Shown one piece after another: positions 1,236-42,905 of a stretch of DNA of 42,905 nt. Position 1 is the stretch's first letter. Every line of letters starts with the position of its first letter. The stretch comes from a virus, in IMG/VR virus record IMGVR_UViG_3300044837_000070, positions 1 through 42,905 of that record. One strand, written 5' to 3'. The position numbers and the translations under genes are program-made. The notes under the pieces were generated by a model. It was not told where the DNA came from. It was given only the letters and a program-made list of their open reading frames with translations, and made no database searches.

Positions 1236-1880
1236 TCACCCTTGGGCCTCCAGCTTATCTTTTAGTTCATTATAGTGTTGGTTGGTCTTAACTAGTTTCA
1301 ATCGGTTATTGATGGCTGCAGGAGTATATGATGAGTTCTCTAACATCTCTCTCAGTTCTAGAATTTGGTCTGGGGTAACTGGGGAGTCGAATGGTTCTTC
1401 AAACTTGCCTTTTGGTTTCTCGTCCATGAAGCTATCTACCACTGGGGGGCTTTTCTTGTACTCAGGGGTCTTTATCGAGTTATCTCGGCTATCTGCGTCC
1501 TTAGTGTTGTCAATTAAGAACAAACCACCAGCCGCGTACTTACGAGCGTATGAAGAACACGAACCCGTTAGTTGAGCGTCGTCCATCTTCGCTTTCGGGC
1601 TTATAGCCTCACGAGCGTAAGCACACTTGCGAATCTCGTCAACCCCATCTGATAAGATGGCCCAGGCTTTTACGTAAACCCTTCCTTCGATACCAATAAT
1701 CTCGTCCTCAAAGGTTAAGGTTAAATTATGTTCAAATAAGAATGGTTTAACTTTATCTTCAATATCCTCTAGGTTTCGGTATACGAACCCTCCAAAGTCA
1801 TTAGTAATATCTTTCGGCACTTTGAGTCTGTGTTGTATATTCACGAGACGATCGTGCAACGTCATTGGTTCTTCGTTCAT
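1236..1880 (-). CDS. erf: ERF-family single-strand annealing recombinase
   Basis: 214 aa. N-terminal LHDRLVNIQ..L.VPKDITNDFGGFVYRNLEDIEDKVKPFL and central DDAQLTGSCSSYARKYAAGGLFLID match ERF hallmarks from memory. First gene behind a strong promoter. Confidence 0.8.
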   Translation of the reverse strand: MNEEPMTLHDRLVNIQHRLKVPKDITNDFGGFVYRNLEDIEDKVKPFLFEHNLTLTFEDEIIGIEGRVYVKAWAILSDGVDEIRKCAYAREAISPKAKMDDAQLTGSCSSYARKYAAGGLFLIDNTKDADSRDNSIKTPEYKKSPPVVDSFMDEKPKGKFEEPFDSPVTPDQILELREMLENSSYTPAAINNRLKLVKTNQHYNELKDKLEAQG

Positions 1881-2201: not shown

Positions 2202-2238
2202 AAATAACCGCTCTCAATGGGGCGGTTATTTTGTTATT
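2202..2238. terminator. Intrinsic-terminator-like hairpin, T-rich on both sides
   Basis: AATAACCGC (2203-2211) pairs with GCGGTTATT (2222-2230) around a 10-nt loop. It is followed by TTGTTATT on the plus strand and by TATGTTTATTTT on the minus strand. Confidence 0.5.
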
Positions 2239-2359
2239 CCATTAAATAGATCAGATGGCAAATGATGTGGAATGCACAATACTACTAAGGATAGGCGAAA
2301 AATAATCTATTACTCTCTTCACTTTCCTGCCTTTGGTATGGTAATATTAACTTAACCGA

Positions 2360-2454
2360 AACGTCTTCACTTTGCAACGCGGAGACCGAGTAGGGGGTAT
2401 TTAACAGGGATAAAAGAAACCCGAGGTTTCCCTCGGGCAACGTCTTCACTTTGC
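2360..2454. repeat. Two perfect 16-nt direct repeats AACGTCTTCACTTTGC (2360-2375, 2439-2454) flanking a hairpin
   Basis: Read directly; spacing 79 nt. The core TCTTCACTTT also occurs at 2316-2325, where it contains the orphan GTG start. Confidence 0.9.
2411..2438 (-). terminator. Intrinsic terminator on the minus strand (CCCGAGG-GAAA-CCTCGGG then TTTCTTTTA)
   Basis: Perfect 7-bp GC-rich stem 2420-2426/2431-2437 with a 4-nt loop, followed by a U-rich tract on the minus strand. Confidence 0.65.
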
Positions 2455-2461
2455 TGTCTTA

Positions 2462-2490
2462 ATGATATCAAATGATCCTGATGAATGCAA
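2462..2490 (-). promoter_or_regulatory. Sigma70-like promoter TTGCAT-17 nt-TATCAT
   Basis: Minus strand reads TTGCAT TCATCAGGATCATTTGA TATCAT. The predicted start near 2455 coincides with the first 16-nt repeat, and the terminator follows about 20 nt later. Confidence 0.55.
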
Positions 2491-2580
2491 GCATTATTCC
2501 TAAGACCACAGCTGAGTTTTAGGCGTTAAACGAATACATAACTAGTTCGGGTTTATTCCCTATTGAAAGGATTATTAGAT

Positions 2581-2880
2581 ATGGCCACAAGTACAGCAGA
2601 CATCCTAGGAGATCATAGGATCAAAGGAAGTTTAAATATCCTAAATCCTAAGAATCCTATGAATAAATCAAGTAGTCAGGTGGATAACATGGTGGAATAC
2701 CTGGTGCAGAAATTCGGCTCGGCCGAAACTCACCTACCCTTTTATAGGAAAGCATCCTGGATGCTACCAGACGACACGATTAGGAGGCTTGTAGCGGCCG
2801 CATCGGAAAAGAAAGCGAATAACCCACGTGGGTACTTTGTGGCCTGTGTGAAACACGAGAAAGCGTATTATGGCAACTAA
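2581..2880 (+). CDS. Hypothetical protein A (99 aa); C-terminal half resembles DnaD/replisome-organizer-type DNA-binding tails
   Basis: The track ORF starts at TTG 2563. ATG 2581 has AAAGGA 9 nt upstream and is preferred. The similarity (AAASEKKANNPRGYFVACVKHE) is a weak recollection only. Confidence 0.7.
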   Translation: MATSTADILGDHRIKGSLNILNPKNPMNKSSSQVDNMVEYLVQKFGSAETHLPFYRKASWMLPDDTIRRLVAAASEKKANNPRGYFVACVKHEKAYYGN

Positions 2881-2899
2881 GCTGACAGGAGGATAAGTA

Positions 2900-3196
2900 A
2901 TGAAGATAGTGGAGATAGATGAAAACGTCAACAATAGGCTGGACGTTATAAAGCAACATGGCCTCGATAACTACGGCACCCCTATAATTACCTACGCGTT
3001 TGCAAACGGGAAGATATCTGTCGTAGCACAGGGGAATCAGCTCAACCCGAAACAGGGTTACTCTTTCGTTAAGATATACAACAAATTTGACGCTAGCCGT
3101 AACGGTGCCTGGAACTTCAGCCTTGAATACATGGACATAATGGCAGAGATTGTCGAGGATATTAGGAAGACAAATAGTTCACTGCAGATCGACTGA
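2900..3196 (+). CDS. Hypothetical protein B (98 aa)
   Basis: Strong RBS (GGAGGATAAGTA before ATG), 19 nt after gene A, followed by a terminator. Confidence 0.8.
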   Translation: MKIVEIDENVNNRLDVIKQHGLDNYGTPIITYAFANGKISVVAQGNQLNPKQGYSFVKIYNKFDASRNGAWNFSLEYMDIMAEIVEDIRKTNSSLQID

Positions 3197-3213
3197 CCTA
3201 CGCTATATGTAGC

Positions 3214-3242
3214 AAAAAAGAGGCTTTTTCGGCCTCTTTTTG
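3214..3242. terminator. Bidirectional intrinsic terminator between convergent genes
   Basis: AAAAAGAGGC-TTTTTCG-GCCTCTTTTT: a GC core stem extended by A/T runs on both sides. It lies between the stop of B (3196) and the stop of C (3314). Confidence 0.8.
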
Positions 3243-3313
3243 TATTGGAATGGTAGTCCGCCTCTGTTAATTAACGTCGCACAACATTTATTTTACGATC
3301 CATCACTACACTA

Positions 3314-3592
3314 CTATAGAACCCAGTCAACGAAGCCATTTATAAGGAGTTTTATGGTGTCAAAATGAGTCAGCATGACGACTATTAATATTAATACCAG
3401 TAAGGGCCACGCGAGACCGACGACAGCTCCACCAATCAGGGCGGGGAGCCATCCGAAGAGCAGCCCGAATAGTAACCCCCATTGAGTGATCGCGTAGAGC
3501 CAAACACAGAGGAACCCTATGGCTCCAACAATTGCAGCACCAATAAGATACTCGGTTAGGCCACTCTTAGTGTCTTTACCTTTCACTGACAA
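3314..3592 (-). CDS. Integral membrane protein C (92 aa, about 3 TM segments)
   Basis: Hydrophobic stretches LIGAAIVGAIGFLCVWLYAI, WGLLFGLLFGWLPALIGGAVVGL and LLVLILIVVML. Its start overlaps the end of D by 10 nt. Confidence 0.8.
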   Translation of the reverse strand: MSVKGKDTKSGLTEYLIGAAIVGAIGFLCVWLYAITQWGLLFGLLFGWLPALIGGAVVGLAWPLLVLILIVVMLTHFDTIKLLINGFVDWVL

Positions 3593-3792
3593 TTATCCCC
3601 GATGTACCGGCTCTCGTAATCTTTCTGTTTAATACCTCTGACCGAAGTGTCCGGATACTGGTCGATCGGGTAGGCATCGACGCTCGCATTGAGTGCAGCT
3701 GTTCTGCAGGAGTTGTCTTGAGTAGCCTGGTAGCTTATGAACACAATGAGGGCGAGCAAAAGGATACCAGCAACCGTCCAGACTTTACTCAT
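3583..3792 (-). CDS. Small N-terminally anchored membrane/exported protein D (69 aa)
   Basis: N-terminal TM (VWTVAGILLLALIVFISY) then a polar domain with two Cys. Overlaps E by 8 nt. Confidence 0.75.
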   Translation of the reverse strand: MSKVWTVAGILLLALIVFISYQATQDNSCRTAALNASVDAYPIDQYPDTSVRGIKQKDYESRYIGDNCQ

Positions 3793-4270
3793 AATGACTA
3801 GTATCTACCCCCACATATTTGCCCAGGTTTATCCATGTCCTAACCTTATCTTCACCCCTGGTGAGCATAGCATTGAAGCAATAAGAAATGTTCTGGCCGT
3901 TCCTAGTGCAGACATCATCCAAATATTTGAATGCCGTGACTCGTTCGGTATCTGTGAAGTATTGCGGTACCATCTGCATCATAGCCCTAATAGATGTTGC
4001 ATACGGGTCGGTGTCCCAACCATACTGTATGATCAGATCTTCGTTTGTTGGTGTTGTTGGTTCTTCTGCCTTCTGAACAGGCGCAGGGGCTGTTTTAGAG
4101 GCTTCTGGAGCCGGTTCGGCTACTTGTGCCACTCTGGATTCGATAGGTGCCTGTGGGGCTTCTGGTGAGGTCACGATGTTCTCCTTCGGTTGGTTCAAAG
4201 CGAAGAGTGTCGTGGTGGCTGCACCAGCGACGATGACTGATATGGATGCGATGATTATTACTCTCTTCAC
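3785..4270 (-). CDS. N-terminally anchored protein E (161 aa) with a Pro/Ala-rich linker and a Cys-containing C-terminal domain
   Basis: GTG start at 4270 behind AGGCAGGAAA. TM segment IIIASISVIVAGAATTTLFAL, then PEAPQAPIES...APAPVQKAEEPTTP. This copy lacks the native promoter seen at 6251-6279. Confidence 0.75.
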   Translation of the reverse strand: MKRVIIIASISVIVAGAATTTLFALNQPKENIVTSPEAPQAPIESRVAQVAEPAPEASKTAPAPVQKAEEPTTPTNEDLIIQYGWDTDPYATSIRAMMQMVPQYFTDTERVTAFKYLDDVCTRNGQNISYCFNAMLTRGEDKVRTWINLGKYVGVDTSHYE

Positions 4271-4307
4271 TTTCCTGCCTTTGGTATGGTAATATTAACT
4301 TAACCGA

Positions 4308-4402
4308 AACGTCTTCACTTTGCAACGCGGAGACCGAGTAGGGGGTATTTAACAGGGATAAAAGAAACCCGAGGTTTCCCTCGGGCAACGTCTTCACTTT
4401 GC
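4308..4402. repeat. Copy 2 of the 16-nt direct-repeat pair (4308-4323, 4387-4402)
   Basis: Identical to 2360-2454 at offset 1,948. Confidence 0.9.
4359..4386 (-). terminator. Copy 2 of the minus-strand intrinsic terminator
   Basis: Identical to 2411-2438. Here it lies between the TTGCAT promoter and gene E copy 1. Confidence 0.65.
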
Positions 4403-4409
4403 TGTCTTA

Positions 4410-4438
4410 ATGATATCAAATGATCCTGATGAATGCAA
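4410..4438 (-). promoter_or_regulatory. Copy 2 of promoter TTGCAT-17-TATCAT
   Basis: Identical to 2462-2490. It is the only recognisable promoter upstream of the E-D-C copy at 4270-3314. Confidence 0.55.
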
Positions 4439-4528
4439 GCATTATTCCTAAGACCACAGCTGAGTTTTAGGCGTTAAACGAATACATAACTAGTTCGGGT
4501 TTATTCCCTATTGAAAGGATTATTAGAT

Positions 4529-4828
4529 ATGGCCACAAGTACAGCAGACATCCTAGGAGATCATAGGATCAAAGGAAGTTTAAATATCCTAAATCCTAAG
4601 AATCCTATGAATAAATCAAGTAGTCAGGTGGATAACATGGTGGAATACCTGGTGCAGAAATTCGGCTCGGCCGAAACTCACCTACCCTTTTATAGGAAAG
4701 CATCCTGGATGCTACCAGACGACACGATTAGGAGGCTTGTAGCGGCCGCATCGGAAAAGAAAGCGAATAACCCACGTGGGTACTTTGTGGCCTGTGTGAA
4801 ACACGAGAAAGCGTATTATGGCAACTAA
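4529..4828 (+). CDS. Hypothetical protein A, duplicate copy
   Basis: Translation identical to 2581-2880. Confidence 0.7.
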   Translation: MATSTADILGDHRIKGSLNILNPKNPMNKSSSQVDNMVEYLVQKFGSAETHLPFYRKASWMLPDDTIRRLVAAASEKKANNPRGYFVACVKHEKAYYGN

Positions 4829-4847
4829 GCTGACAGGAGGATAAGTA

Positions 4848-5144
4848 ATGAAGATAGTGGAGATAGATGAAAACGTCAACAATAGGCTGGACGTTATAAA
4901 GCAACATGGCCTCGATAACTACGGCACCCCTATAATTACCTACGCGTTTGCAAACGGGAAGATATCTGTCGTAGCACAGGGGAATCAGCTCAACCCGAAA
5001 CAGGGTTACTCTTTCGTTAAGATATACAACAAATTTGACGCTAGCCGTAACGGTGCCTGGAACTTCAGCCTTGAATACATGGACATAATGGCAGAGATTG
5101 TCGAGGATATTAGGAAGACAAATAGTTCACTGCAGATCGACTGA
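4848..5144 (+). CDS. Hypothetical protein B, duplicate copy
   Basis: Translation identical to 2900-3196. Confidence 0.8.
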   Translation: MKIVEIDENVNNRLDVIKQHGLDNYGTPIITYAFANGKISVVAQGNQLNPKQGYSFVKIYNKFDASRNGAWNFSLEYMDIMAEIVEDIRKTNSSLQID

Positions 5145-5161
5145 CCTACGCTATATGTAGC

Positions 5162-5190
5162 AAAAAAGAGGCTTTTTCGGCCTCTTTTTG
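5162..5190. terminator. Bidirectional terminator, duplicate copy
   Basis: Identical to 3214-3242. Confidence 0.8.
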
Positions 5191-5261
5191 TATTGGAATG
5201 GTAGTCCGCCTCTGTTAATTAACGTCGCACAACATTTATTTTACGATCCATCACTACACTA

Positions 5262-5540
5262 CTATAGAACCCAGTCAACGAAGCCATTTATAAGGAGTTT
5301 TATGGTGTCAAAATGAGTCAGCATGACGACTATTAATATTAATACCAGTAAGGGCCACGCGAGACCGACGACAGCTCCACCAATCAGGGCGGGGAGCCAT
5401 CCGAAGAGCAGCCCGAATAGTAACCCCCATTGAGTGATCGCGTAGAGCCAAACACAGAGGAACCCTATGGCTCCAACAATTGCAGCACCAATAAGATACT
5501 CGGTTAGGCCACTCTTAGTGTCTTTACCTTTCACTGACAA
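5262..5540 (-). CDS. Membrane protein C, duplicate copy
   Basis: Translation identical to 3314-3592. Confidence 0.8.
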   Translation of the reverse strand: MSVKGKDTKSGLTEYLIGAAIVGAIGFLCVWLYAITQWGLLFGLLFGWLPALIGGAVVGLAWPLLVLILIVVMLTHFDTIKLLINGFVDWVL

Positions 5541-5740
5541 TTATCCCCGATGTACCGGCTCTCGTAATCTTTCTGTTTAATACCTCTGACCGAAGTGTCC
5601 GGATACTGGTCGATCGGGTAGGCATCGACGCTCGCATTGAGTGCAGCTGTTCTGCAGGAGTTGTCTTGAGTAGCCTGGTAGCTTATGAACACAATGAGGG
5701 CGAGCAAAAGGATACCAGCAACCGTCCAGACTTTACTCAT
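5531..5740 (-). CDS. Membrane/exported protein D, duplicate copy
   Basis: Translation identical to 3583-3792. Confidence 0.75.
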   Translation of the reverse strand: MSKVWTVAGILLLALIVFISYQATQDNSCRTAALNASVDAYPIDQYPDTSVRGIKQKDYESRYIGDNCQ

Positions 5741-6218
5741 AATGACTAGTATCTACCCCCACATATTTGCCCAGGTTTATCCATGTCCTAACCTTATCTT
5801 CACCCCTGGTGAGCATAGCATTGAAGCAATAAGAAATGTTCTGGCCGTTCCTAGTGCAGACATCATCCAAATATTTGAATGCCGTGACTCGTTCGGTATC
5901 TGTGAAGTATTGCGGTACCATCTGCATCATAGCCCTAATAGATGTTGCATACGGGTCGGTGTCCCAACCATACTGTATGATCAGATCTTCGTTTGTTGGT
6001 GTTGTTGGTTCTTCTGCCTTCTGAACAGGCGCAGGGGCTGTTTTAGAGGCTTCTGGAGCCGGTTCGGCTACTTGTGCCACTCTGGATTCGATAGGTGCCT
6101 GTGGGGCTTCTGGTGAGGTCACGATGTTCTCCTTCGGTTGGTTCAAAGCGAAGAGTGTCGTGGTGGCTGCACCAGCGACGATGACTGATATGGATGCGAT
6201 GATTATTACTCTCTTCAC
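5733..6218 (-). CDS. Anchored protein E, duplicate copy (GTG start at 6218)
   Basis: Same GTG and RBS as copy 1. The track extension to ATG 6260 would begin upstream of the -10 box at 6251-6256, so the shorter form is preferred. Confidence 0.75.
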   Translation of the reverse strand: MKRVIIIASISVIVAGAATTTLFALNQPKENIVTSPEAPQAPIESRVAQVAEPAPEASKTAPAPVQKAEEPTTPTNEDLIIQYGWDTDPYATSIRAMMQMVPQYFTDTERVTAFKYLDDVCTRNGQNISYCFNAMLTRGEDKVRTWINLGKYVGVDTSHYE

Positions 6219-6250
6219 TTTCCTGCCTTTGGTATTAATTGATAACAGAG

Positions 6251-6279
6251 AGTATACCATCGTTTGACCCGTAAGTCAA
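6251..6279 (-). promoter_or_regulatory. Sigma70-like promoter TTGACT-17 nt-TATACT for the E-D-C operon (right-hand copy only)
   Basis: Minus strand reads TTGACT TACGGGTCAAACGATGG TATACT, about 30 nt upstream of GTG 6218. It lies outside the duplicated unit. Confidence 0.7.
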
Positions 6280-6316
6280 TGAGTGATAGACTGGATTCAT
6301 AAAATAGGAGGTCAAT

Positions 6317-6529
6317 ATGCTTTCAATCTTAAAGAGAATCGCTCTAGCAATTATATTCGGGGTAATCGTGGCATTCGCATTTTGGTTTGTCGGATTTCTA
6401 CTCGTGAATCTGTTAACGATCGCACCCCCAGCCGTGTTAGTAGGTCAGGTACTGATTAACGTCTCCTACTGGGCAGGGTTGATCGCTGGAGTAGTATTCC
6501 TCTTAACAGGACGCGATCGACTCTGGTAG
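6317..6529 (+). CDS. Small integral membrane protein (70 aa, 2-3 TM)
   Basis: RBS TAGGAGGTCAAT before the ATG. The sequence is almost entirely hydrophobic. Confidence 0.75.
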   Translation: MLSILKRIALAIIFGVIVAFAFWFVGFLLVNLLTIAPPAVLVGQVLINVSYWAGLIAGVVFLLTGRDRLW

Positions 6530-6570
6530 AATTAAAAGACCGCCCGTATAGGCGGCAGTAGAGACAAAAT

Positions 6571-6593
6571 AAGCTCGGTATTTAGCCGAGCTT
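6571..6593. terminator. Hairpin terminator between convergent genes (one of three hairpins in 6540-6626)
   Basis: AAGCTCGG (6571-6578) pairs with CCGAGCTT (6586-6593), with T-rich flanks in both directions. Further stems at 6540-6555 and 6608-6625. Confidence 0.55.
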
Positions 6594-6632
6594 TGTCTTA
6601 CCATTGAAACCGCAGCCAAGCGGTTCTTTAAT

Positions 6633-9836: not shown

Positions 9837-11438
9837 ATGGCTACACGTAAGGAAAACCGAGTTATTGTTAGAGATAAAGCAGCACGTGCGAAGATACTAG
9901 AAGGAGCCAGGGGAGTCTACCAGACTGTTGCTAGCACCTATGGTCCTAGAGGTATGAATGTTTTAATTGAACAGACCTTTGGACGCCCTGTAGTTACAAG
10001 GGATGGCGTGACGGTTGCCCGTGCTATCTACTTCTCTGATCGTGCTAAAAATGTCGGTGCTCAGGTCATCACTGAGGCGTCAGAAACCACTAATAGAATT
10101 GCAGGGGACGCTACAAGTGCCACGGCCGTTCTGAGTGGACATCTTTTAGAGAATAGTTATAGGGCTATAGATAACGGGATGCATCCGATGGATGTCAGTG
10201 CTATCTTGAAACGAGATCACGAACTTATCCTTGAAAGAATCGAAGAACTTGGGAGTCCTGTTAGTGAAGGCCAGCTTGAGCAAGTCGCTACGGTATCATC
10301 GGGAGACCCTCTCCTCGGAAGGTTAATCGCTGAAGCCATCGAGTATGTAGGGCCAGATGGCGGTATCATTTCTGAGAAGGCCCCTGTTAATTCAGTCGAA
10401 CGTGAGTATGTTGACGGATACTATATCCAGTCGGGTTTTGGAGCGCTACAGTCCGGTAAGAAAGAACTTATTGACCCAACAACTGTTGTGTGTATACGCC
10501 CCGTTAAATCGAGAGCTGACGCCTTTGAGTTGCTTGAGAACATTGCCAAAAGCTTAGGGATTCAGCCAGGATCTGGCGTTATTCCTCGAATACTGTTTAT
10601 CGGAAATATCGAGGAAGATGCATATGTTTCACTGGTAGACGCAATCAATAGAGGAGTCATTGATGGAGTTATTATTACACCTCCGCCTTCGTTTGGATCA
10701 ATGGCAAAAGAACTTCTCGAAGATATTGCTATTTACGCACGCTGCCAACCTATTACAGATATGACAAACATGAGAGAGTTTGATATTCGCTACCTTGGCT
10801 CAGTAGCCCGGGTTGTCTCTACTAAAGTGGAAGCTACGATCTTTGGCGATGGAGCCTCAGAGGATATCGACGTCCGTATCGCAGATATTAAAGAGGCTAT
10901 TAAACTCGAAGTCTCTGATCTCGTTATTGAACGTCTAAAAGATCGGGTGGCTAAGCTAGAAGGTAAGATTGCTCTTTTTAGGATTGGGGCTCCGACCGAC
11001 TCGGCTAAAGAGGAACTAGAATTCCGTGTTGAAGATGCTATTAACACCACAAGGGCGGCGGCTCAATCTGGTATTGTTGCTGGAGGAGGAGTAACTTTAC
11101 TAGAAGTCAGTAAGCTTCCTATTAGTGACATTTACAGAGAAGCGCTCAGATCTAATCTGAAACAACTCCTTATTAATGCCAATACCCGACATATAACCTA
11201 TAGAAAGTGGTACGAGTTCTGGAAACCTCGTGTAAGTGTAGATATTTCAGAACTATTGAATGCTCCGGTAGGGTACGGTATCAATCTACGCAAGAGTGAT
11301 GACCTGGTGGACATCATTAAGGATGGAGTTATTGACGCTAAGCTAGCTGCTCAACAGACTATTATTAACGCTACCGACTCGGTTGCCACTCTAATTACTA
11401 CTGATCGTGTGATTATATTTGAGGATGAAGAAAGATAA
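9837..11438 (+). CDS. groEL: GroEL-like group I chaperonin (533 aa)
   Basis: ARAKILEGA..V...V..TYGPRGMNV, PVVTRDGVTVA, AGDATSATAVLS (canonical AGDGTTTATVLA), VAGGGVTLL and VIDAKLAAQQTI..A.SVATLITT are all collinear with GroEL. There is no GGM tail. Confidence 0.9.
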   Translation: MATRKENRVIVRDKAARAKILEGARGVYQTVASTYGPRGMNVLIEQTFGRPVVTRDGVTVARAIYFSDRAKNVGAQVITEASETTNRIAGDATSATAVLSGHLLENSYRAIDNGMHPMDVSAILKRDHELILERIEELGSPVSEGQLEQVATVSSGDPLLGRLIAEAIEYVGPDGGIISEKAPVNSVEREYVDGYYIQSGFGALQSGKKELIDPTTVVCIRPVKSRADAFELLENIAKSLGIQPGSGVIPRILFIGNIEEDAYVSLVDAINRGVIDGVIITPPPSFGSMAKELLEDIAIYARCQPITDMTNMREFDIRYLGSVARVVSTKVEATIFGDGASEDIDVRIADIKEAIKLEVSDLVIERLKDRVAKLEGKIALFRIGAPTDSAKEELEFRVEDAINTTRAAAQSGIVAGGGVTLLEVSKLPISDIYREALRSNLKQLLINANTRHITYRKWYEFWKPRVSVDISELLNAPVGYGINLRKSDDLVDIIKDGVIDAKLAAQQTIINATDSVATLITTDRVIIFEDEER

Positions 11439-27951: not shown

Positions 27952-29025
27952 TTAGACACCTGTGATGCCGCTAATTTTAGCTGTTCGGTTAGGGTTCAGG
28001 CAGATCAAGTTACCGTACATAACGAAGATACCGACTTCAGCAAGTTGACCAACGGGTTGGATGTACTTGCGGAATTGGAAGGCCGAAACCTTGTACTTGT
28101 CGTATGCACCAGTCGTAACGGTCTCAGTCGTCGCAACCATATCAAGGGTATTGATTGGAAGTGAGCGGAATTGGAACCATTTCTCGTTGATGAACCACTG
28201 CGTACCTGCTGGAGCTTTTTGATCGCGGACGTAGTTCTTGCCTCGGAAGTCAACGCTGGTTGCGCCACCCTTAAGGTTAAGACCTGCACTCGCTTGTACT
28301 GGCTGTCCAACACCCGTTGAGCCGTTTGTGAACTCACCGCCCAATGCACCATAAGTGGCAAACTGTGAAGGAGTTAACAGGCTTGAGTAGTACGACCAAA
28401 CGGTAGGGTCGCTCAAGATCAAGTTAGTAGTCTCTGAGAGATCACCTGAAATTGTCGAGCCGTCGTCTGCCGCGTACATTGTCTCAAGATCGAGTGCTCC
28501 TGCTGGGGCACCGACTAGGAAGGCGTTAATAGTAGGAAAGGCTGATCGTGAAAGACCTGCGTAAGTAGAAGTCGAAGTACCGTCATCTACAATGTTTCCC
28601 AAACCATCAAAGTCATTACCCGTGCCGTATCCGTAGAAGATTTGGCCTAATGCGGTAATCATTGAGTTCTGCGCGTATTGGTATGAACCATCCGTCAGAT
28701 TAACGACACCTGCTGGAGTTTTGTTGATTGATTGTTCAATCAAGCTAACACCGACTGGTTGTGCGTATCCTGTTGGATACCAGGTGAACTTCTGGGTATT
28801 GAAGTCGATAGTTGTATCGAACGTTTCAGTCCCCTTAAAGCTACGACCTAAGTTAGAGTTGTTAGTAAAGATCGGAGCTTGGAAACTTCGGCCATTCCAG
28901 GGTTTTGGATTGGCGACGACTCGCTTCATAATCTCGCTCGATTTGTTTACGGTGTCAACGATACTAGAGTTAATGTCCTCTAAGGTGATGTTGTTGACCC
29001 TATCGTTCTGGGGCGTTGCTGCCAT
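27952..29025 (-). CDS. Major capsid protein (357 aa)
   Basis: Follows portal and scaffold in canonical order. Strong RBS (TAAGGAGAAAAGT) at the internal ATG 29025, which lies 24 codons inside the track ORF. The extension to 29097 would run through the leader hairpin. No fold-level evidence available. Confidence 0.6.
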   Translation of the reverse strand: MAATPQNDRVNNITLEDINSSIVDTVNKSSEIMKRVVANPKPWNGRSFQAPIFTNNSNLGRSFKGTETFDTTIDFNTQKFTWYPTGYAQPVGVSLIEQSINKTPAGVVNLTDGSYQYAQNSMITALGQIFYGYGTGNDFDGLGNIVDDGTSTSTYAGLSRSAFPTINAFLVGAPAGALDLETMYAADDGSTISGDLSETTNLILSDPTVWSYYSSLLTPSQFATYGALGGEFTNGSTGVGQPVQASAGLNLKGGATSVDFRGKNYVRDQKAPAGTQWFINEKWFQFRSLPINTLDMVATTETVTTGAYDKYKVSAFQFRKYIQPVGQLAEVGIFVMYGNLICLNPNRTAKISGITGV

Positions 29026-29065
29026 ACTTTTCTCCTTATATTTTAGGCTTCTATGGGGATTTTCT

Positions 29066-29133
29066 AATAAAAAAAGCGCCCCTGATAGGGCGGCCATTAG
29101 CTTAATAATAACGCAGGGTTATTAACTATGCAA
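29066..29133 (-). promoter_or_regulatory. Promoter (TTGCAT-17-TATTAT, 29105-29133), GCTAATGGC box, GC hairpin (29077-29092) and U-tract ahead of the capsid gene
   Basis: -35 at 29128-29133 and -10 at 29105-29110. GCTAATGGC at 29093-29101. Stem CGCCC/GGGCG, then CTTTTTTTATT, about 40 nt before ATG 29025. Confidence 0.6.
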
Positions 29134-30057: not shown

Positions 30058-32163
30058 TTACTGCGTTGGTACTGGTGGGGTAGCCTCTCCTGGCCCCGCT
30101 ACTGGTGCTGCGGTGGTCGAAAGTGCTATGTCAGGCGGCGGAGCCATACCAGGGACGCCTTGTGGTGGCACTCCTGAAGGCACTGGAGCTGTCGTGGGAG
30201 CTGTCGGAGTTATAGGAGCGGGCGAAGGTTGTACCATTCCCGCGTCGTCTATTAAGAGGGCTGTGAGGTTAGCAGTGTTTGTAGCTACGTGCTGGACAGC
30301 CATCAGGAATGCGGTGAGTTTCTCTTGAGCTTGGATGTCAAGCTTTTGGAATCTGTTGGAAGCCATGAATGAGTTGTAATAGTTGAGATAGTCAGCTGAA
30401 TAGTTGTCTCTCTCTTCAGGAACTTTGCCCATGATAAGGAGTTGTATATCTGCCTCAGCGTCGGTATTGATCTGATCCAATTCGATAGACTTAAGGTAAG
30501 CCTGTGGGTCAAGATTAGATTTCAGGTATCTCTCTGCTCGTATCTCAGGATCAGGAAGGCCCAGGTCTTGCATCAGCGTCAGGTAGTCAATGGCATTACC
30601 AGACTGCCACAGTTCCATTGCTGTTGAACGGATATTCTGCTTGTCTAATGGAAGAGTTGAATCGGTCTGAACACCAATTTTTACATTAGAGTCGATATTC
30701 TCACCATTCAAGAGGATAAAGGTATACTTCCCGTCTCCGCCTTTGCAAGCGAACCAATGGTCTTCTGCGTAGTAGACTCTCATCATCTGAAGCTTAATTT
30801 TGTAGTAGGTTTCAGCGGCATCTGAGATAGCTAGTACTAAATCGTCTTGCAAAGCCCCCGCTTGGTTCTTTACTAATAGATCCCGTGTCGCGGTATCTTG
30901 AGACTGTGGCTGTGCGCCCCTAAACTGAGCAGGAGTACCCATAATGTTATCAATCTCATTCCGGGCGTCGAACATCGTATTAACCGCGTAAGCGGGGAGT
31001 TCGCTTGAGCCGACGTTCACAAAGGCCTTAGAAATGTCGTCACCCTTAGCCATTAAGACCGTTCGAGCACCCTTATTAACTAGTTTTTGGGTGTCTTCTT
31101 CGTTGAAAGCGTCTTTGGAAGCAATATAACGGCCATTCACATAGTCAGCGTTCTCCATGATCTGACGGCCACGCTTGTTCAACATCTCTTGCTGGTCTCT
31201 GGCCTGTTCAAATAAGGACGTTTCATCAATATAAGACTCTCCCATGTTCATGTAATTAAACGGAACAAAAGGTTTAGGTGGCATTGAGAGTAGATTGGCC
31301 TCTTTTTCCTTCTTATCTGATCCCGTATATACCCAGTTAGGGTTGGGTTGTTTGTCTAAGATGATATCTTCATCAGGAAGAAACCAACAGACACCTTCTT
31401 TAGGCTTGCCGTTTTCTATATAAGTGAACCACGCCTCGAAGTAAGTAATAAATCGAGACATCTGTGTATAGCGTCCTTGGACAATTCCAAAAGCTTTTTT
31501 AATTTCGTCAGCCTTACCAGGGAATTTCATAATCAGTTCATCAACGGAGCAACGTAACCGGTGATAGATAACGTTAGGATTGTCTAGGTATTTAGCGTTC
31601 CTATCAATGATAATGTCTTCTGGGTTACAGACTTCTGTCACGACATCCCCATCATATCCAGCGTTGGGGTCCCATCGTAGCTTAAGGAAACCACGTTTAC
31701 GGATAATAAGGTTCATTGCCGCCGCTCTAAACTTACGATCTGCCTTCTCGTCTAGAGAGTGCTGGTAGAGGGCCATTTGCAAGTCCCTAGCGCCCTTTAT
31801 ATAGATTTCATCGCTCTTGCTAGGGGTTAATTCAGGCTTAGCCATCTGTCCTGTTGCGTAAGCTAGAATAGCCCTTACCGCTGTGAACAGGCGGTTGTCC
31901 TTATACCTAATATCGTATCGAGTATATTCGGAGTCGTTCAGCTGATCACCCAAAAAGAATGAGACATTGGCCTTATCGTTCTCTTCTAAGCTCCAGGGAG
32001 CTTGATTCCAGTGTGCTCTGTTCTCGTTTAAAGAAGTAACTAACATCTGTTTTAGTTTCTCATCAGGGAGGGTGAGGTTGAAAGTCTCGTAATCTTCGGG
32101 AGGAAGGTAGAGAGTAGAGAATCTCTCAGTATAAGCGTTTTGATCGCGTTGTCTTGGTTCCAC
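30058..32163 (-). CDS. Portal protein (701 aa)
   Basis: Large ORF immediately after TerL and a small gene. GTG start at 32163 with TGAGGA 9 nt upstream. Assignment by position and size. Confidence 0.6.
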   Translation of the reverse strand: MEPRQRDQNAYTERFSTLYLPPEDYETFNLTLPDEKLKQMLVTSLNENRAHWNQAPWSLEENDKANVSFFLGDQLNDSEYTRYDIRYKDNRLFTAVRAILAYATGQMAKPELTPSKSDEIYIKGARDLQMALYQHSLDEKADRKFRAAAMNLIIRKRGFLKLRWDPNAGYDGDVVTEVCNPEDIIIDRNAKYLDNPNVIYHRLRCSVDELIMKFPGKADEIKKAFGIVQGRYTQMSRFITYFEAWFTYIENGKPKEGVCWFLPDEDIILDKQPNPNWVYTGSDKKEKEANLLSMPPKPFVPFNYMNMGESYIDETSLFEQARDQQEMLNKRGRQIMENADYVNGRYIASKDAFNEEDTQKLVNKGARTVLMAKGDDISKAFVNVGSSELPAYAVNTMFDARNEIDNIMGTPAQFRGAQPQSQDTATRDLLVKNQAGALQDDLVLAISDAAETYYKIKLQMMRVYYAEDHWFACKGGDGKYTFILLNGENIDSNVKIGVQTDSTLPLDKQNIRSTAMELWQSGNAIDYLTLMQDLGLPDPEIRAERYLKSNLDPQAYLKSIELDQINTDAEADIQLLIMGKVPEERDNYSADYLNYYNSFMASNRFQKLDIQAQEKLTAFLMAVQHVATNTANLTALLIDDAGMVQPSPAPITPTAPTTAPVPSGVPPQGVPGMAPPPDIALSTTAAPVAGPGEATPPVPTQ

Positions 32164-32488: not shown

Positions 32489-34072
32489 TCAGGGGTCGAG
32501 CTCATTTAGTGTCTCAGATATCACATTTCCGAGCGACGTATCTCCGCTGACTTCAGACTTACTACTATCCGGCTCAATAAACAGACTCTCTGATCCTAAG
32601 ACTTTAGAAAGCCCTATACGATAGTAGGCAGTGGCAAAGGAATAGTCCGAGTTCTTGCCTTCTTTCTTGAGCCATTCCGATTTGGAACGTCCGTCATCCT
32701 TCTCGACAGTCGTTCGATAAAGATTCCCCCAGTCCGCGATGTACTCTTCTAGTTCGCTCGGATGCATCCTGAAAAGTAACTTGGCCTCAGTGATTTCACT
32801 GGCTACCATATCTAATAACCTCGTTCTATCAGCATTAACAGTTTGGCCCTTCCAGTTAACAATATGCATACCCTTCTGCTCTTGAAAGTAACACAGGTAA
32901 ACGTCATTATATTTATCGGCTAGCTGCTTAGGCTTGGTTGGATAAGGATTCGGGTCGATTACTACGATAGCCTTGTACATTAACTTCAATCTTTCAATCT
33001 CTTCCCACGACTCGTACTTCCCATAGGCGAAGATTCCATCAGGTGTCCCTACAACATATATCTGGTTGTTGACATTCTGATCCACTCCGATGACTACGTT
33101 CCTCTTGGGGATATTTGAAGGCGCACAAGCCCTTAGAATAGCCACGCGGTCTACGATCATGTCTGAAGGCGTATAGGCTTTCCCGATAACGAAGTTCATA
33201 AAGAAATCAATCGAAGACTCTTCGTATTGTTCAATGATCCTTCTAGCTGTTACCCAGGGAGCCATCATCTGAGAGATCCAGTAGCCATGTCTCTTCCGGT
33301 CGGGGTACTTAGTAACCCAGTGCCCCATCCTACGAGCCTCGTCACTTATCTCTTCACTACACGCCCCACAAGCATATATTCCCTTTGCCCTATCAACATA
33401 GTGACACCTTCCGTCTGGCTCCCAGTCCATGAACCAGTCGTGCCCACAGTGATCGCATTTGACGAACCAATGTCTCATATCCGACTCGTTATATAATCCG
33501 TCTACTCCAAAACCTACTTGTGAAGGATTAGAGAACCGCCACCGCTTAGGCCGCAAGCTCGCTTGCAAACGGGAGTCGAAAGTATTCACAACAGCCATAG
33601 AAGGCATACGATCGTATTCATCTATTACAAGGATATCTCCCGTAATAGAAATAGCCTCTCTGTCTGAGAAGCCACCTTTAAAGAATAGGTTCCTATCGCC
33701 TACTCGTTTATACGTAACAGAATCATCTTTTACAATTATATTGATTGCTGGGTTAGTCGAGATCAGAGGGTTAACCTTCGGTTTTACGAAGTCATTAACC
33801 ACGTTGTTAGTAGGAAGGGCGTAGATAACATTCCAGCCCCCATACTTAGCTTCCCAGATTGAACGAAGGATAGCGAAAACGGAGAAGCCTACTTGGGCTG
33901 ACTTACGACAAACGATATCGTCAGACTCATCAGCATAGATATCAATCATAAACCTATGGGAGTCGAACTCAATAAGTGACTGGTTCTCGTTCTTGAACTT
34001 ATTAAGGGTTATCCAGGCAAGGACTGATGAGGCTATGAGGTCTTCGTTTGTTGGTGTTTTAGCTATTGACAC
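32489..34072 (-). CDS. terL: Terminase large subunit, GpA-like
   Basis: 527 aa. N-terminal ATPase-like KSAQVGFS, acidic ILVIDEYD (Walker-B-like) and FVKCDHCGHDWFMDW ... CGACSEE, the Cys cluster I recall in lambda GpA-type terminases. GTG start with GAGGT upstream. Confidence 0.75.
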   Translation of the reverse strand: MSIAKTPTNEDLIASSVLAWITLNKFKNENQSLIEFDSHRFMIDIYADESDDIVCRKSAQVGFSVFAILRSIWEAKYGGWNVIYALPTNNVVNDFVKPKVNPLISTNPAINIIVKDDSVTYKRVGDRNLFFKGGFSDREAISITGDILVIDEYDRMPSMAVVNTFDSRLQASLRPKRWRFSNPSQVGFGVDGLYNESDMRHWFVKCDHCGHDWFMDWEPDGRCHYVDRAKGIYACGACSEEISDEARRMGHWVTKYPDRKRHGYWISQMMAPWVTARRIIEQYEESSIDFFMNFVIGKAYTPSDMIVDRVAILRACAPSNIPKRNVVIGVDQNVNNQIYVVGTPDGIFAYGKYESWEEIERLKLMYKAIVVIDPNPYPTKPKQLADKYNDVYLCYFQEQKGMHIVNWKGQTVNADRTRLLDMVASEITEAKLLFRMHPSELEEYIADWGNLYRTTVEKDDGRSKSEWLKKEGKNSDYSFATAYYRIGLSKVLGSESLFIEPDSSKSEVSGDTSLGNVISETLNELDP

Positions 34073-38338: not shown

Positions 38339-38362
38339 AGTGTTCCCTTCGTTTATTATCTT

Positions 38363-38391
38363 AGTCTAGCATACTCAGTAAGCGAATGCAA
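38363..38391 (-). promoter_or_regulatory. Early promoter TTGCAT-17-TAGACT
   Basis: TTGCAT TCGCTTACTGAGTATGC TAGACT. The -35 and spacer are identical to the promoter at 39578-39606. Confidence 0.7.
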
Positions 38392-39461: not shown

Positions 39462-39577
39462 TATAGCTCCTTTTTATTTAGTTGAACCGTTTAGCTGCCT
39501 TGTGCCTAGCGTGCGGGAGCATATCATCCCTTGTGCTAATTTGGTTCTTGTGACCCCTTCGTTTCGGTCGTGCCCTT

Positions 39578-39606
39578 ATAATAGCATACTCAGTAAGCGA
39601 ATGCAA
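39578..39606 (-). promoter_or_regulatory. Early promoter TTGCAT-17-TATTAT
   Basis: TTGCAT TCGCTTACTGAGTATGC TATTAT, directly after the NinG stop. Followed by AAACGAAGGGG and a leader of about 110 nt. Confidence 0.7.
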
Positions 39607-39609
39607 TAG

Positions 39610-40026
39610 TTAGGCCAATAATGCTTTCGCTTTCTCTTTATATTCAGCCTCTATCTCTATAAACTGATAAAGCTTATACTGTTTTGTCTCTCTTTTAAGG
39701 TTCATAAACTCTAGAACTTTCTCTCTGCCCCATTCGTCAATCATAAATAAGGTGTAGGCCTTATAATTCCCTCCGAGGCCTCTAGGAGGTTTACCATTAC
39801 AGAAGCCGCACTGGGAGTAGACAATCCTCTCGTCAAATAGAACAGCGTTACCTCTGCCTTCTACGAAATGCCCCGCTTGAAGGGCCTTTTTTGGCATAAA
39901 TCTCTTACAGGTAATACACATACCGTTATCAGGATCACCCGTGAACCTAAGACAATCCCTTATGCGGATAAACTGACTGAAGCTTTCCCACGCCCTATCT
40001 TTAGCTATAGCTCTAGGAGTCTTCAC
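39610..40026 (-). CDS. ninG: NinG-family protein (138 aa from GTG 40026)
   Basis: FSQFIRIRDC...GMCITCKR...QAGHFV...SQCGFCNG fits lambda NinG-type proteins. GTG 40026 has AAGGAG 7 nt upstream. The track start ATG 40071 lacks an SD and overlaps a well-signalled small ORF. Confidence 0.7.
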   Translation of the reverse strand: MKTPRAIAKDRAWESFSQFIRIRDCLRFTGDPDNGMCITCKRFMPKKALQAGHFVEGRGNAVLFDERIVYSQCGFCNGKPPRGLGGNYKAYTLFMIDEWGREKVLEFMNLKRETKQYKLYQFIEIEAEYKEKAKALLA

Positions 40027-40153
40027 GCGCCAACTCCTTGATGGCTTTTGCTGCATACTGAATTGGATCATTTAATACATGCTTCCCTCTACCAGCAGAC
40101 ACTCCTGCATCGTAGAGGTTCTTGAGAATTCTGAATAATTTAGAACCGTTCAT
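40013..40153 (-). CDS. Small early ORF (46 aa)
   Basis: RBS AGAGAGGACAA before ATG 40153. MNGSKLFRILKNLYDAGVSAGRGKHVLNDPIQYAAKAIKELAREDS. Ends 14 nt inside ninG. Confidence 0.45.
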   Translation of the reverse strand: MNGSKLFRILKNLYDAGVSAGRGKHVLNDPIQYAAKAIKELAREDS

Positions 40154-41830: not shown

Positions 41831-42905
41831 CTAGGCTTCTTGCTCGATTAGTAAGTAATCTTCTAGTGGGAGTGAGTTCCCCTGTTCATCTTGGTAGCCG
41901 TTAGCTGTAGCAAGGTCTGCGTCCCCCTTTGCCCCTACTTCGGGCGGAACGAACTTTATAAACTCACGAGGGGTAGAAGCATCTGTCATAACAAGGGCAT
42001 ACTCAGTTACCCCAGTCCCTCGGAAATCTTTACACTCGTATAGTCGATTGCCCTTAACACCCGTATGGATTAACTTAGCTTTGAGTCCTTTAAGCATTTC
42101 TTTTGAGCCTAGCATCGAGAAAGCAATCTCACGCTTATCTGAGTCTTTTATTTCCAAAACTTCTTCTGCTGTAATTTTCTGACTAACAATCTTTTTCCAC
42201 AATTCTACTTCGCCTTCTCCATCGAATCTTTCACCTCTTAAAGCGTGAAACCCCCATCCATCAGGCCATTCGATTGCTTGCCCTATTTCGGAATGTAATT
42301 GTCCCTGTTCGTTTCTTTGAATAATCGAGGGTCGGTTACAGACCATCACAAAGTTAGTATATGGATACCACCATGAGACAGATTTCGCAATATCTTGATA
42401 AGATTCAGCTCTTTCTTTTATGTCTATAGTTGTTTCAAGTCCTGCTACTTCTGTCATAAAACTTACATAGCTCGGTGAGCCTCGCCACCAACCACCAACC
42501 CAGAACTGGCCACCCAGACGGTTATACCAGCTGTTTTCTACAGCACCGTCTACAGCACCGCCTATAGCACCGCGTACAGCACCGTCTACAGCACCGCCTA
42601 CAGCATCGCGTACAGCATCGTCTACAGCACCGCCTACAGCACCGCCTACAGCACCGCGTACAGCACCGCCTACAGCACCGCCTATAGCACCGCCTATAGC
42701 ACCGCGTATAGCACCGTCTACAGCACCGCCTACAGCATCGCGTACAGCACCGCCTACAGCATCGTCTACAGCATCGTCTACAGCACCGTCTACAGCACCG
42801 TCTACAGCACCGCCTATAGCACCGCGTACAGCACCGTCTACAGCACCGCCTACAGCATCGCGTACAGCATCGTCTACAGCATCGCCTACAGCACCGCCTA
42901 CAGCA
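41831..42905 (-). CDS. Tetrapeptide-repeat protein, 3' part (enters from the right window edge; stop at 41831)
   Basis: The frame of track ORF 41831-42457 stays open upstream through ...AVENSWYNRLGGQFWVGGWWRGSPSYVSF-MTEV... and all 30.5 repeat units to 42905. The codon phase matches the fragment at 1-548. Confidence 0.85.
   Translation of the reverse strand, partial: AVGGAVGDAVDDAVRDAVGGAVDGAVRGAIGGAVDGAVDGAVDDAVDDAVGGAVRDAVGGAVDGAIRGAIGGAIGGAVGGAVRGAVGGAVGGAVDDAVRDAVGGAVDGAVRGAIGGAVDGAVENSWYNRLGGQFWVGGWWRGSPSYVSFMTEVAGLETTIDIKERAESYQDIAKSVSWWYPYTNFVMVCNRPSIIQRNEQGQLHSEIGQAIEWPDGWGFHALRGERFDGEGEVELWKKIVSQKITAEEVLEIKDSDKREIAFSMLGSKEMLKGLKAKLIHTGVKGNRLYECKDFRGTGVTEYALVMTDASTPREFIKFVPPEVGAKGDADLATANGYQDEQGNSLPLEDYLLIEQEA
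42540..42905 (-). repeat. 12-nt tandem repeat array, 30 complete units plus a 6-nt partial unit
   Basis: Units start at 42540+12k with the same consensus AYAGCAYCGYST and the same four variable positions as 1-300. Confidence 0.97.

Follow-up and report, generated by a model that had tools for sequence, protein, structure and literature searches.

A perfectly duplicated phage accessory cassette bordered by a short direct repeat of its own 5' end

In the T4-type phages RB49 and phi1, promoter/stem-loop (PeSL) cassettes consist of open reading frames (ORFs) bordered by a terminator stem-loop and an early promoter (Arbiol, Comeau, Kutateladze, Adamia and Krisch 2010, PMC2839356; Comeau et al. 2014, PMC4122927). 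Monomer and dimer joints of PeSL mini-circles were recovered by inverse polymerase chain reaction (PCR) from infected cells and from phage stocks, with crossovers mapped between the -10 element and the ATG and no integrase involved (PMC2839356). The present study concerns a locus in the IMG/VR virus record IMGVR_UViG_3300044837_000070, the 42,905 nt of which were analyzed over their full length (the window), where a 1,948-nt unit with five ORFs, A to E, occurs as a perfect tandem duplication bordered by a 32-nt direct repeat, r. Among the systems compared, the PeSL cassettes and their mini-circles appear to be the closest precedent, in that the locus is probably similar to them in working, while not being a member of the family.

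Like PeSL cassettes, the unit encloses small genes of unassigned function and has, at least at its left-hand border, a terminator stem-loop with a sigma70-type early promoter, and r falls in the interval of PeSL exchange, from the -10 element to the start codon, ending 15 nt into gene E. PeSL products hold one border together with the enclosed genes, as those of the present locus would, and the phage's own recombination machinery is invoked in place of a dedicated integrase. The two are, however, without sequence relationship, and the phage group considered here (~40 kb, chaperonin-encoding) is unrelated to the T4-type phages. The window repeats only the 5' untranslated region (5'UTR) and the start of one gene, the promoters upstream of the repeat copies being different (P_E and P2). 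The repeat pair stands at one locus, whereas PeSL motifs are dispersed through hyperplastic regions, and the border copies stay identical within a genome over long divergence. Finally, circles are deduced here from an assembly (contig L004, below), whereas PeSL circles were shown by PCR.

Phage T4 amplifies dmd-tifA under toxIN selection, with compensating deletions (Srikant, Guegler and Laub 2022, PMC9391042), and phage tandem duplications are classical according to the work that this paper cites (Anderson and Roth 1977, cited in PMC9391042); the statement in the initial annotation of the window that accordion-type amplification is rarely documented in phages thus needs qualifying. The T4 case resembles the present one in the head-to-tail arrangement of a short accessory segment that includes a promoter, in its origin by short-homology recombination, as proposed here, and in the packaging size limit that applies to it. 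The T4 homologies are 2-10 bp long and population-specific, whereas here a conserved 32-nt repeat pre-exists, and in T4 the copy number was taken from coverage, selection was applied and gene function was shown, whereas here we have the sequence of a contig. In the genomic accordions of poxviruses, expansion of K3L to many copies and later collapse have been seen experimentally. Tandem amplification as a fast and reversible route to higher dose is what these accordions have in common with the locus; they belong to another virus and recombination system, and the window offers only a two-copy snapshot. The 'a' sequences of herpes simplex virus, which are bounded by DR1 and located at the genome termini and the L-S junction, are non-coding and carry packaging signals. 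They share with the duplicated tract its topology, in which neighbouring units have one short repeat in common, as well as, possibly, a position at a genome-end joint and a variable copy number, but the unit described here encodes five ORFs, and a packaging signal and a physical end are known for the 'a' sequence only.

The duplicated unit and its border repeat

Direct comparison of positions 2308-4255 with positions 4256-6203 revealed identity over 1,948 nt with 0 mismatches, which bears out the perfect tandem duplication reported in the initial annotation; an identity of this extent cannot have arisen by chance. At a shift of 1,948 nt the self-match is unbroken over 2308-4287. The opening 32 nt of the unit, r (TATTACTCTCTTCACTTTCCTGCCTTTGGTAT), occur three times (Table 1), and the whole tract of 2308-6235 amounts to two units plus 32 nt, with the layout r-b-r-b-r and a body b of 1,916 nt. 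The tract end at 6235 given earlier agrees with this structure, and the ORFs listed earlier are present in both copies, the second set at +1948. What had been overlooked is the significance of the additional 32 nt, namely that a direct repeat borders the unit, and this border supplies a concrete mechanism of duplication. In the JGI gene calls of the contig, E is called once as 161 amino acids (aa) and once as 175 aa, one reading per copy, and since these calls carry both readings the duplication belongs to the deposited contig and was not made with the window.

Read on the minus strand, r (ATACCAAAGGCAGGAAAGTGAAGAGAGTAATA) contains 5'UTR, an AAGG/AGGA ribosome-binding site and the GTG start of E with four codons. 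It starts 9 nt past the -10 element of promoter P2 and 15 nt past that of promoter P_E, and ends 15 nt into E. Its edges are sharp, a comparison of the flanks with the unit having yielded no further similarity, and it is confined to the duplicated locus, with no other occurrence in the genome. An old partial duplication, which decayed homology of the flanks to the unit would have indicated, was considered and rejected, no such homology extending beyond r.

The unit is placed where the late block ends and the leftward early operon begins; the promoter of this operon (1909-1937) precedes the gene of an Erf-family annealing protein. The position between lysis genes and early promoter that had been assigned to it is therefore correct, but the lysis identity of the right-hand neighbours is only weakly supported, by one weak holin match (E=0.009) and one match to a 'membrane associated protein' family. 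Its layout is also as first described: genes A and B on the plus strand are followed by a terminator hairpin, towards which three membrane-protein genes converge (C, D and E, in which hydrophobic segments are found). Of the 'five genes' of the initial annotation, all five ORFs are present, but homologues elsewhere were detected for A and E only, B, C and D being ORFs for which no relatives could be detected.

Border repeats in related elements

No near relative of the whole phage was found by megablast against GenBank phages. In IMG/VR, neither the 32-mer r nor a conserved 23-mer, the A-type protein or the proteins of the right (R) flank gave a match, and E and A had no match in GTDB genomes. 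A metagenome scan with the concatenated Erf, A to E and R proteins returned Erf relatives only, none of them with the cassette. The comparison of cassettes is based on seven elements: the window, the IMG/VR phage contigs L014 and L015 (37.7 and 38.1 kb) and the four Logan contigs L008-L011. These diverged elements, across all of which E is ~32-47% identical, have a common build consisting of E, one or two small membrane genes, a convergent small gene (in five of them) and then a succession of promoter P1, box, hairpin and box/P2. Every one of the seven is bordered by a direct repeat, of 21-111 nt, and at the left-hand border all seven have a stem-loop terminator, then P2 and r. Since this bordered architecture is common to relatives, the duplication in the window is not to be regarded as a one-off accident. 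The border repeat covers the start of E in L010, L011, L014, L015 and the window; it is found ~60-110 nt upstream of the E start in L008 and ~20-60 nt inside E in L009, and the repeats of these two elements have sequences other than r and no motif shared with it.

L014 and L015 each open with a segment that recurs one unit later (repeat of 111 nt and unit of 1,174 nt in L014; 49 nt and 1,307 nt in L015). The segment consists of P2, 5'UTR and the start of E, and its second copy leads, as in the window, to a flank with a Rad52/Erf-type early operon, the joint of r with the left flank being at a homologous position in all three. Both contigs therefore contain one unit plus border repeat (repeat-body-repeat-left flank), the single-copy r-b-r arrangement that was not found for the window's own phage. 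Their border repeat includes a promoter; at the right-hand border of the window another promoter (P_E) is present, and the repetition is limited to r. Where both copies can be read in context, namely in the window, L014 and L015, the two border copies of a genome are the same, while their sequence varies from one genome to another. Because independent copies would not gain the same substitutions, they have been homogenised by exchange or repeatedly re-made. From this pattern of substitutions we infer a continuing exchange between the two border sites, and such homogenising exchange would be the same process that yields duplications, deletions and circles.

The Logan contigs L008-L011 (1.58-1.68 kb) begin and end with the same 21-24 nt. 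In a k=31 de Bruijn simulation, a contig of this shape was obtained from an overlap-sized repeat plus a closure joint, and also from a single-copy cassette with repeats of 60 minus overlap = 36-39 nt. The end overlaps were therefore rejected as proof of a circle or tandem joint; the shape is ambiguous and proves the border repeat only. Contig L004, assembled by MEGAHIT at k141, has a 141-nt, k-sized end overlap and is a closed 1,930-nt cycle, with a cut point that is arbitrary and away from the E start, which indicates that closure of the b-r-b type exists elsewhere in the family. In L012, a 39-kb relative, the E homologue follows the chaperonin operon, and the late/early joint has no bordered structure.

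L004 also harbors an extra gene (1156-1605) for a 149-aa helix-turn-helix and HNH endonuclease protein, scoring 21.8 bits against a Pfam HNH cut-off of 21.4 bits, and L015 encodes a related protein in its early region. Carriage of a homing-type nuclease could help a cassette to spread.

Proposed exchange between border copies and competing explanations

An r copy at each outer border, and another at the joint, is what exchange between flanking direct repeats characteristically leaves behind. We consider it somewhat better than an even chance (a probability of roughly 0.55) that exchange of r with r, bordering a single early-gene cassette, produced the observed joint. In the parent, read on the minus strand, the order would have been right flank - P_E - r - E D C - terminator - (B A on the opposite strand) - P1 - box - stem-loop - box/P2 - r - short ORF - terminator - early promoter - erf. 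Recombination of one r copy with the other would then create a new joint in which the P2 end of the unit is linked through r to gene E, as in the r-b-r-b-r of the contig, either by unequal pairing of sister or co-infecting genomes, or by excision of the unit in the form of a 1,948-nt circle, which then re-enters a resident copy. The likeliest catalysts would be the phage's own Erf annealing protein and a NinG/Rap-like resolvase, a second recombination function encoded by the phage (Table 1). We infer the existence of the joint in real molecules, its origin by such exchange and the enzymes responsible. With the same bordered layout kept in relatives, the locus has the appearance of one made for duplication, looping-out or loss, and would be a recurrent recombination substrate.

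Site-specific recombination at r was rejected, as the search for a recombinase was negative and L008 and L009 have their border repeats at other positions. Likewise, there is no indication of an att-flanked element: neither the unit nor the ~40 genome ORFs scanned against family libraries revealed an integrase, a DNA polymerase was not recognised among these ORFs either, and no core site is conserved at a fixed position, L008 and L009 being different.

Several observations weigh against exchange of r with r as the source of the joint. A length of 32 nt is at the low end for efficient annealing-protein-driven recombination. The spot of the border repeat differs between elements, being upstream of E in L008 and inside E in L009; such shifted repeats fit homology-driven events, which do not in themselves explain how the repeat pair is maintained. 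Given the ambiguous shape of the Logan contigs, L004 is the only instance of closure outside the window. Lastly, two copies are what the shortest walk using the loop edge once would give, and the true number could be one (plus circles), two or more.

The last of these points is the core of an alternative that we consider unlikely, in which the genome has one copy, R-r-b-r-L, and the joint stems from excised 1,948-nt circles or minority duplications whose loop edge was walked once by the assembler. Two copies would be the minimal traversal of such a loop, and the assembler failed to cross even a 0.66-kb repeat. A 12-nt tandem array is present at both contig ends (1-294, 24.5 copies; 42538-42905, 30.7 copies), which overlap by 30 nt and join in frame on the minus strand to give one ORF with ~55 tetrapeptide repeats (x-[G/D]-A-[V/I]) between an N-terminal domain and a Trp-rich C-terminal domain. 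The map is thus circular and was broken by the assembler inside the ~0.66-kb repeat, the true length of the array not being given by the contig, and the break suggests short reads, which could not have spanned the 1.95-kb unit. The same alternative is in keeping with the isolated 1.93-kb cycle of L004, which is without flanks, with the single unit plus border repeat in L014 and L015 (both from JGI samples) and with the monomer and dimer mini-circles of PeSL cassettes in infected cells and phage stocks (PMC2839356). A non-replicating circle would, however, have to near genome abundance for its edge to survive graph cleaning, and no replication gene was recognised in the unit. L004, for its part, may be a free circle but also a long tandem array. 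The unit as an autonomous replicon with A as initiator was also considered and found unsupported, A having no family, PDB-sequence or fold match and the units of L014 and L015 having no A-type gene.

A joint that is present in no molecule, arising from chimeric reads or from an assembler or scaffolder error at the 32-nt repeat, is in our estimation very unlikely. The record is a metagenome contig with assembler settings not recorded, 32 nt is near small k values, the copies are perfectly identical, and the contig ends in a repeat. Yet r is shorter than the k commonly used by metagenome assemblers, and without joint-bearing reads the graph would be linear and contain no second copy, so that the second copy needs joint-bearing reads and a pure artefact is improbable. 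In terms of graph reasoning, for which the k=31 simulation illustrates general behaviour only, a 32-nt repeat is resolved at k of at least 33, and unitigs of smaller k make no new joints; nor does 32 nt equal the node overlap at the usual k values of metaSPAdes and MEGAHIT. Moreover, both the deposited contig and its gene calls carry the duplication, and the closed cycle of L004 comes from the same locus in an independent assembly of a relative. The assembly artefact offered as an alternative in the initial annotation is thus weakened by the length of r and by the L004 cycle, and retains a small probability.

Quite unlikely, too, is the possibility that the joint is a junction of terminal repeats. 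Linear virion DNA would have the form r-b-r-L...R-r-b-r, with a ~1.98-kb direct terminal repeat bounded by r, and annealing of the extreme r copies would produce R-r-b-r-b-r-L in circles or concatemers. Such annealing needs little resection and could use Erf, and a cell-derived metagenome would assemble the joined form. The unit sits where terminal repeats sit, between the last late-side genes and the first early promoters, with the early promoters P1 and P2 inside the repeat, and this model would readily account for the zero divergence and for border repeats that are identical. Among characterised large terminases, those of Herelleviridae are the nearest, at ~25% identity; Herelleviridae package long direct terminal repeats, but a similarity of this degree is too weak to assign a packaging class. 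Ordinary terminal repeats, furthermore, collapse to one copy in assemblies and leave no repeat-to-repeat joint, so that a special end-joining register would be needed, and the location of the L008 and L009 repeats elsewhere, with no motif in common with r, speaks against a conserved cleavage site.

Exchange of r with r would also underlie an adaptive accordion, a special case in which a real duplication is kept by selection for higher dose, for example against a host defence. Precedents exist in poxviruses and in the dmd-tifA amplification of T4 under toxIN (PMC9391042), the latter making the idea a legitimate one, and plausible promoters are available for all genes of both copies, with P_E in front of the right-hand E and P1/P2 of copy 2 in front of the left-hand E. 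This special case nonetheless appears quite unlikely. Nothing in Pfam or NCBIfam reached threshold for A to E, the matches in PHROGs and PADLOC were marginal, and A and E had no fold match; copy-number variation and selection are not visible in a single contig; and L014 and L015 show one unit. The proposal of an adaptive accordion under host restriction made in the initial annotation is hence unsupported, as no anti-defence or other function could be assigned.

Signals, genes and significance of the cassette

The features of the locus and of its genomic surroundings are collected in Table 1.

Table 1. Positions of the duplicated unit, its border repeats, regulatory signals and genes, and of selected genes elsewhere in the window.
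Feature	Position	Position in copy 2	Strand	Description
Unit copy 1 (r + body)	2308..4255			1,948 nt
Unit copy 2	4256..6203			Identical to copy 1
r copy 1, left side	2308..2339		-	Then left flank
r copy 2, novel junction	4256..4287		-	Links copy 2 regulatory end to copy 1 gene E
r copy 3, right side	6204..6235		-	Start of right-hand E; outside promoter P_E precedes
Promoter P1	2462..2490	4410-4438	-	TTGCAT-N17-TATCAT, TG-extended -10; within unit
TTGCAT-N17-TAnnnT promoter family	1909-1937, 2462-2490, 4410-4438, 29105-29133, 38363-38391, 39578-39606		all -	
Intrinsic terminator	2419..2438	4367-4386	-	GC-rich hairpin + T-run, just downstream of P1
Promoter P2	2349..2377	4297-4325	-	TTGCAA-N17-TAAGTT; ends 9 nt upstream of r
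Box copy 1	2439-2454	4387-4402		16 nt, at P1 transcription start
Box copy 2	2360..2375	4308-4323		AACGTCTTCACTTTGC on plus strand; overlaps P2 -35
Hairpin between convergent gene sets	3214..3243 (approx.)	5162-5191		aaaaaagaggc-tttttcg-gcctcttttttg; A-run before, T-run after
Promoter P_E	6251..6279		-	TTGACT-17-TATACT, TG-extended; outside unit
Strong hairpin terminator	2202..2231			Left flank
Gene A	2581..2880	4529-4828	+	99 aa, small, basic, soluble
Gene B	2900..3196	4848-5144	+	98 aa, soluble
Gene C	3314..3592	5262-5540	-	92 aa, ~3 hydrophobic segments
Gene D	3583..3792	5531-5740	-	69 aa, one N-terminal hydrophobic segment
Gene E	3785..4270	5733-6218	-	161 aa, GTG start within r
Short ORF e'	2251..2322		-	23 aa (MKRVIDYFSPILSSIVHSTSFAI); begins at r copy 1 start codon, enters left flank
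Erf-family single-strand annealing protein	1236..1880		-	PF04404, E=7e-30; first gene of leftward early operon
NinG/Rap-like junction-specific endonuclease	39610..40071		-	Second phage recombination function
GroEL/Cpn60-like chaperonin	9837-11438		+	phrog_5725, E=2.5e-91

On the minus strand, the regulatory end of the unit is ordered P1, box, GC-rich hairpin with T-run, a spacer of ~40 nt, box/P2 and r. P1 is one of six leftward TTGCAT-N17-TAnnnT promoters in the genome, where 0.37 would be expected by chance, and two of the six sit in the duplicated unit. Three members of this family (1889-1937, 38343-38391 and 39558-39606) are parts of a 49-nt repeat family with a leader (..AACGAAGGGA..), and one lies directly upstream of the major capsid gene. 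The hairpin downstream of P1 is kept among relatives, while its stem sequence varies. P2 was called on the basis of conservation, its position being conserved in L010, L011, L014 and L015, and was not flagged by the consensus scan. P_E is the best consensus match of the region and is predicted to drive the right-hand copy of E only; upstream of the left-hand copy stand the P1 and P2 that belong to the second unit. As the ATG at 6260 falls within the spacer of P_E, the 175-aa reading of E is unlikely. Just upstream of r, the contexts of P_E and P2 show a slight hint of similarity.

The two boxes stand at ~-132 and ~-52 from the start of E. Box pairs, in the form of 9-16-nt direct repeats around the terminator hairpin, occur at the same positions in L004, L009, L010, L011, L014 and L015; in these and the window, seven elements together, the spacing is 79-80 nt in six and 76 nt in L009, and the two boxes are alike within an element (exact or with 1-2 differences) and unlike between elements. 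Possible readings of the pair are two operators for a co-evolving regulator, another instance of local homogenisation, and the seed of a short transcript from P1. The 39 nt between the hairpin and P2 (2377-2415, minus strand; CCTCGGGTTTCTTTTATCCCTGTTAAATACCCCCTACTC) are identical in the window and L011, despite protein identities of only 60% (A) and 42% (E), and an ACCCCCT core is present at this position in all seven elements.

The hairpin between the convergent gene sets was not listed by the terminator scan and is read as a putative bidirectional terminator from its A-run, stem and T-run. It belongs to the beginning of a non-coding element of ~110 nt (~3197-3300; ~5145-5248 in copy 2) that is 71-89% conserved in L010, L011 and L009 while the adjoining genes differ, and that contains AAAATAAATGTTGKGCGAC..TTAACAGRGG, the terminator hairpin, CTACATATAGCGT and then a second hairpin. 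The element had no Rfam match, and no RNA family or tRNA was found in the region. In the left flank, hairpin-forming sequence at a position similar to that of the terminator at 2202-2231 was noted by eye in L014 and L015.

Short ORFs that begin at the start codon of the left-hand border repeat, as e' does, are present in L014 (~1279-1383, 34 aa) and L015 (~1347-1436, 29 aa). The N-termini are weakly similar (MK[KRS][VI][IF].[YFL][FL].[PS][IV]) and the ORFs have conserved DNA, TATTGYGCATTCYACAA, inside; e' may be a real leader peptide or merely conserved DNA. Beyond the right-hand border, a very hydrophobic 70-aa ORF (6317-6529, plus strand) with a strong AGGAGG ribosome-binding site reads away from P_E, with its own promoter-like site (6264-6292) back to back over P_E and three hairpins downstream (6539-6625).

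For gene A, three relatives were found (two protein-search matches and an ORF of L011), 51-81% identical. Its AF2 model has four main helices over residues 31-97 at a mean pLDDT of 73, and A gave no family match, no significant profile match in PDB sequences and no PDB fold match of the model. B has a marginal match to PADLOC 2TM_IV (E=1.6e-4) and D to phrog_4696 (E=0.0078). E consists of a membrane anchor at the N-terminus, a linker rich in Pro and Glu, and a conserved C-terminal domain, of which the AF2 pLDDT is >90. Exhaustive protein searches gave an E family of 31 clusters including its own (P0001, P0002, P0007-P0035), for which there is no Pfam, PHROG or NCBIfam model; the family domain of ~90 aa has five helices and the conserved pattern TNExLIxQYGW...PQxFTDxxR..SFxYL...W..LGK..GVDTSxYE, and the AF2 model of E found no PDB fold match. 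Among nine E members whose contigs were looked up, seven are on contigs of 0.9-2.1 kb, one is on the 39-kb phage contig L012, and the ninth is the window's own E.

The contig represents the genome of a tailed phage, with genes for the large terminase (32489-34072), portal (30058-32163) and major capsid protein (27952-29097); structural genes span 12068-34072, two HNH endonucleases are also encoded, and genes read leftward almost uniformly from 42457 down to 12068. The chaperonin is also encoded by L012 (7947-9527) and by the TM7 phage DolZOral124_53_65 (MG269973.1, 15183-16625), whose capsid protein, 38% identical, is the nearest GenBank match to that of the window. On these similarities the phage group may infect Saccharibacteria (TM7).

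To the duplication itself the analysis adds a border repeat of 32 nt, the recognition of this repeat as the 5' end of E, and a conserved, self-homogenising bordered architecture in related phages. A tentative idea, which we consider unlikely as it stands, goes further than the exchange proposed for the window: in this little-known group of chaperonin-encoding phages (~38-43 kb) the cassette at the late/early junction, with a self-homogenising repeat of its 5' end at its borders, would form circles of ~1.2-2 kb on a regular basis and re-enter or be amplified, in a recombinase-free, PeSL-like manner in an unrelated lineage, or else repeat-unit-repeat would be an end-joining or packaging joint like the herpesvirus a/DR1 arrangement. 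The bordered layout, border copies that agree within each of the three genomes in which both can be read but differ from genome to genome, and the one closed cycle form a family pattern, by which a single oddity becomes a hypothesis open to test. Contigs with members of the cassette family almost always measure <=2 kb, so that the family breaks assemblies, and the copy number written in contigs for such loci is not to be taken at face value. If the joint is real, the locus would be a natural, sequence-defined case of phage accessory-gene gain, loss and multiplication without a dedicated recombinase, by a form of exchange between short regulatory border repeats for which experimental demonstration is so far limited to the PeSL cassettes of T4-type phages.

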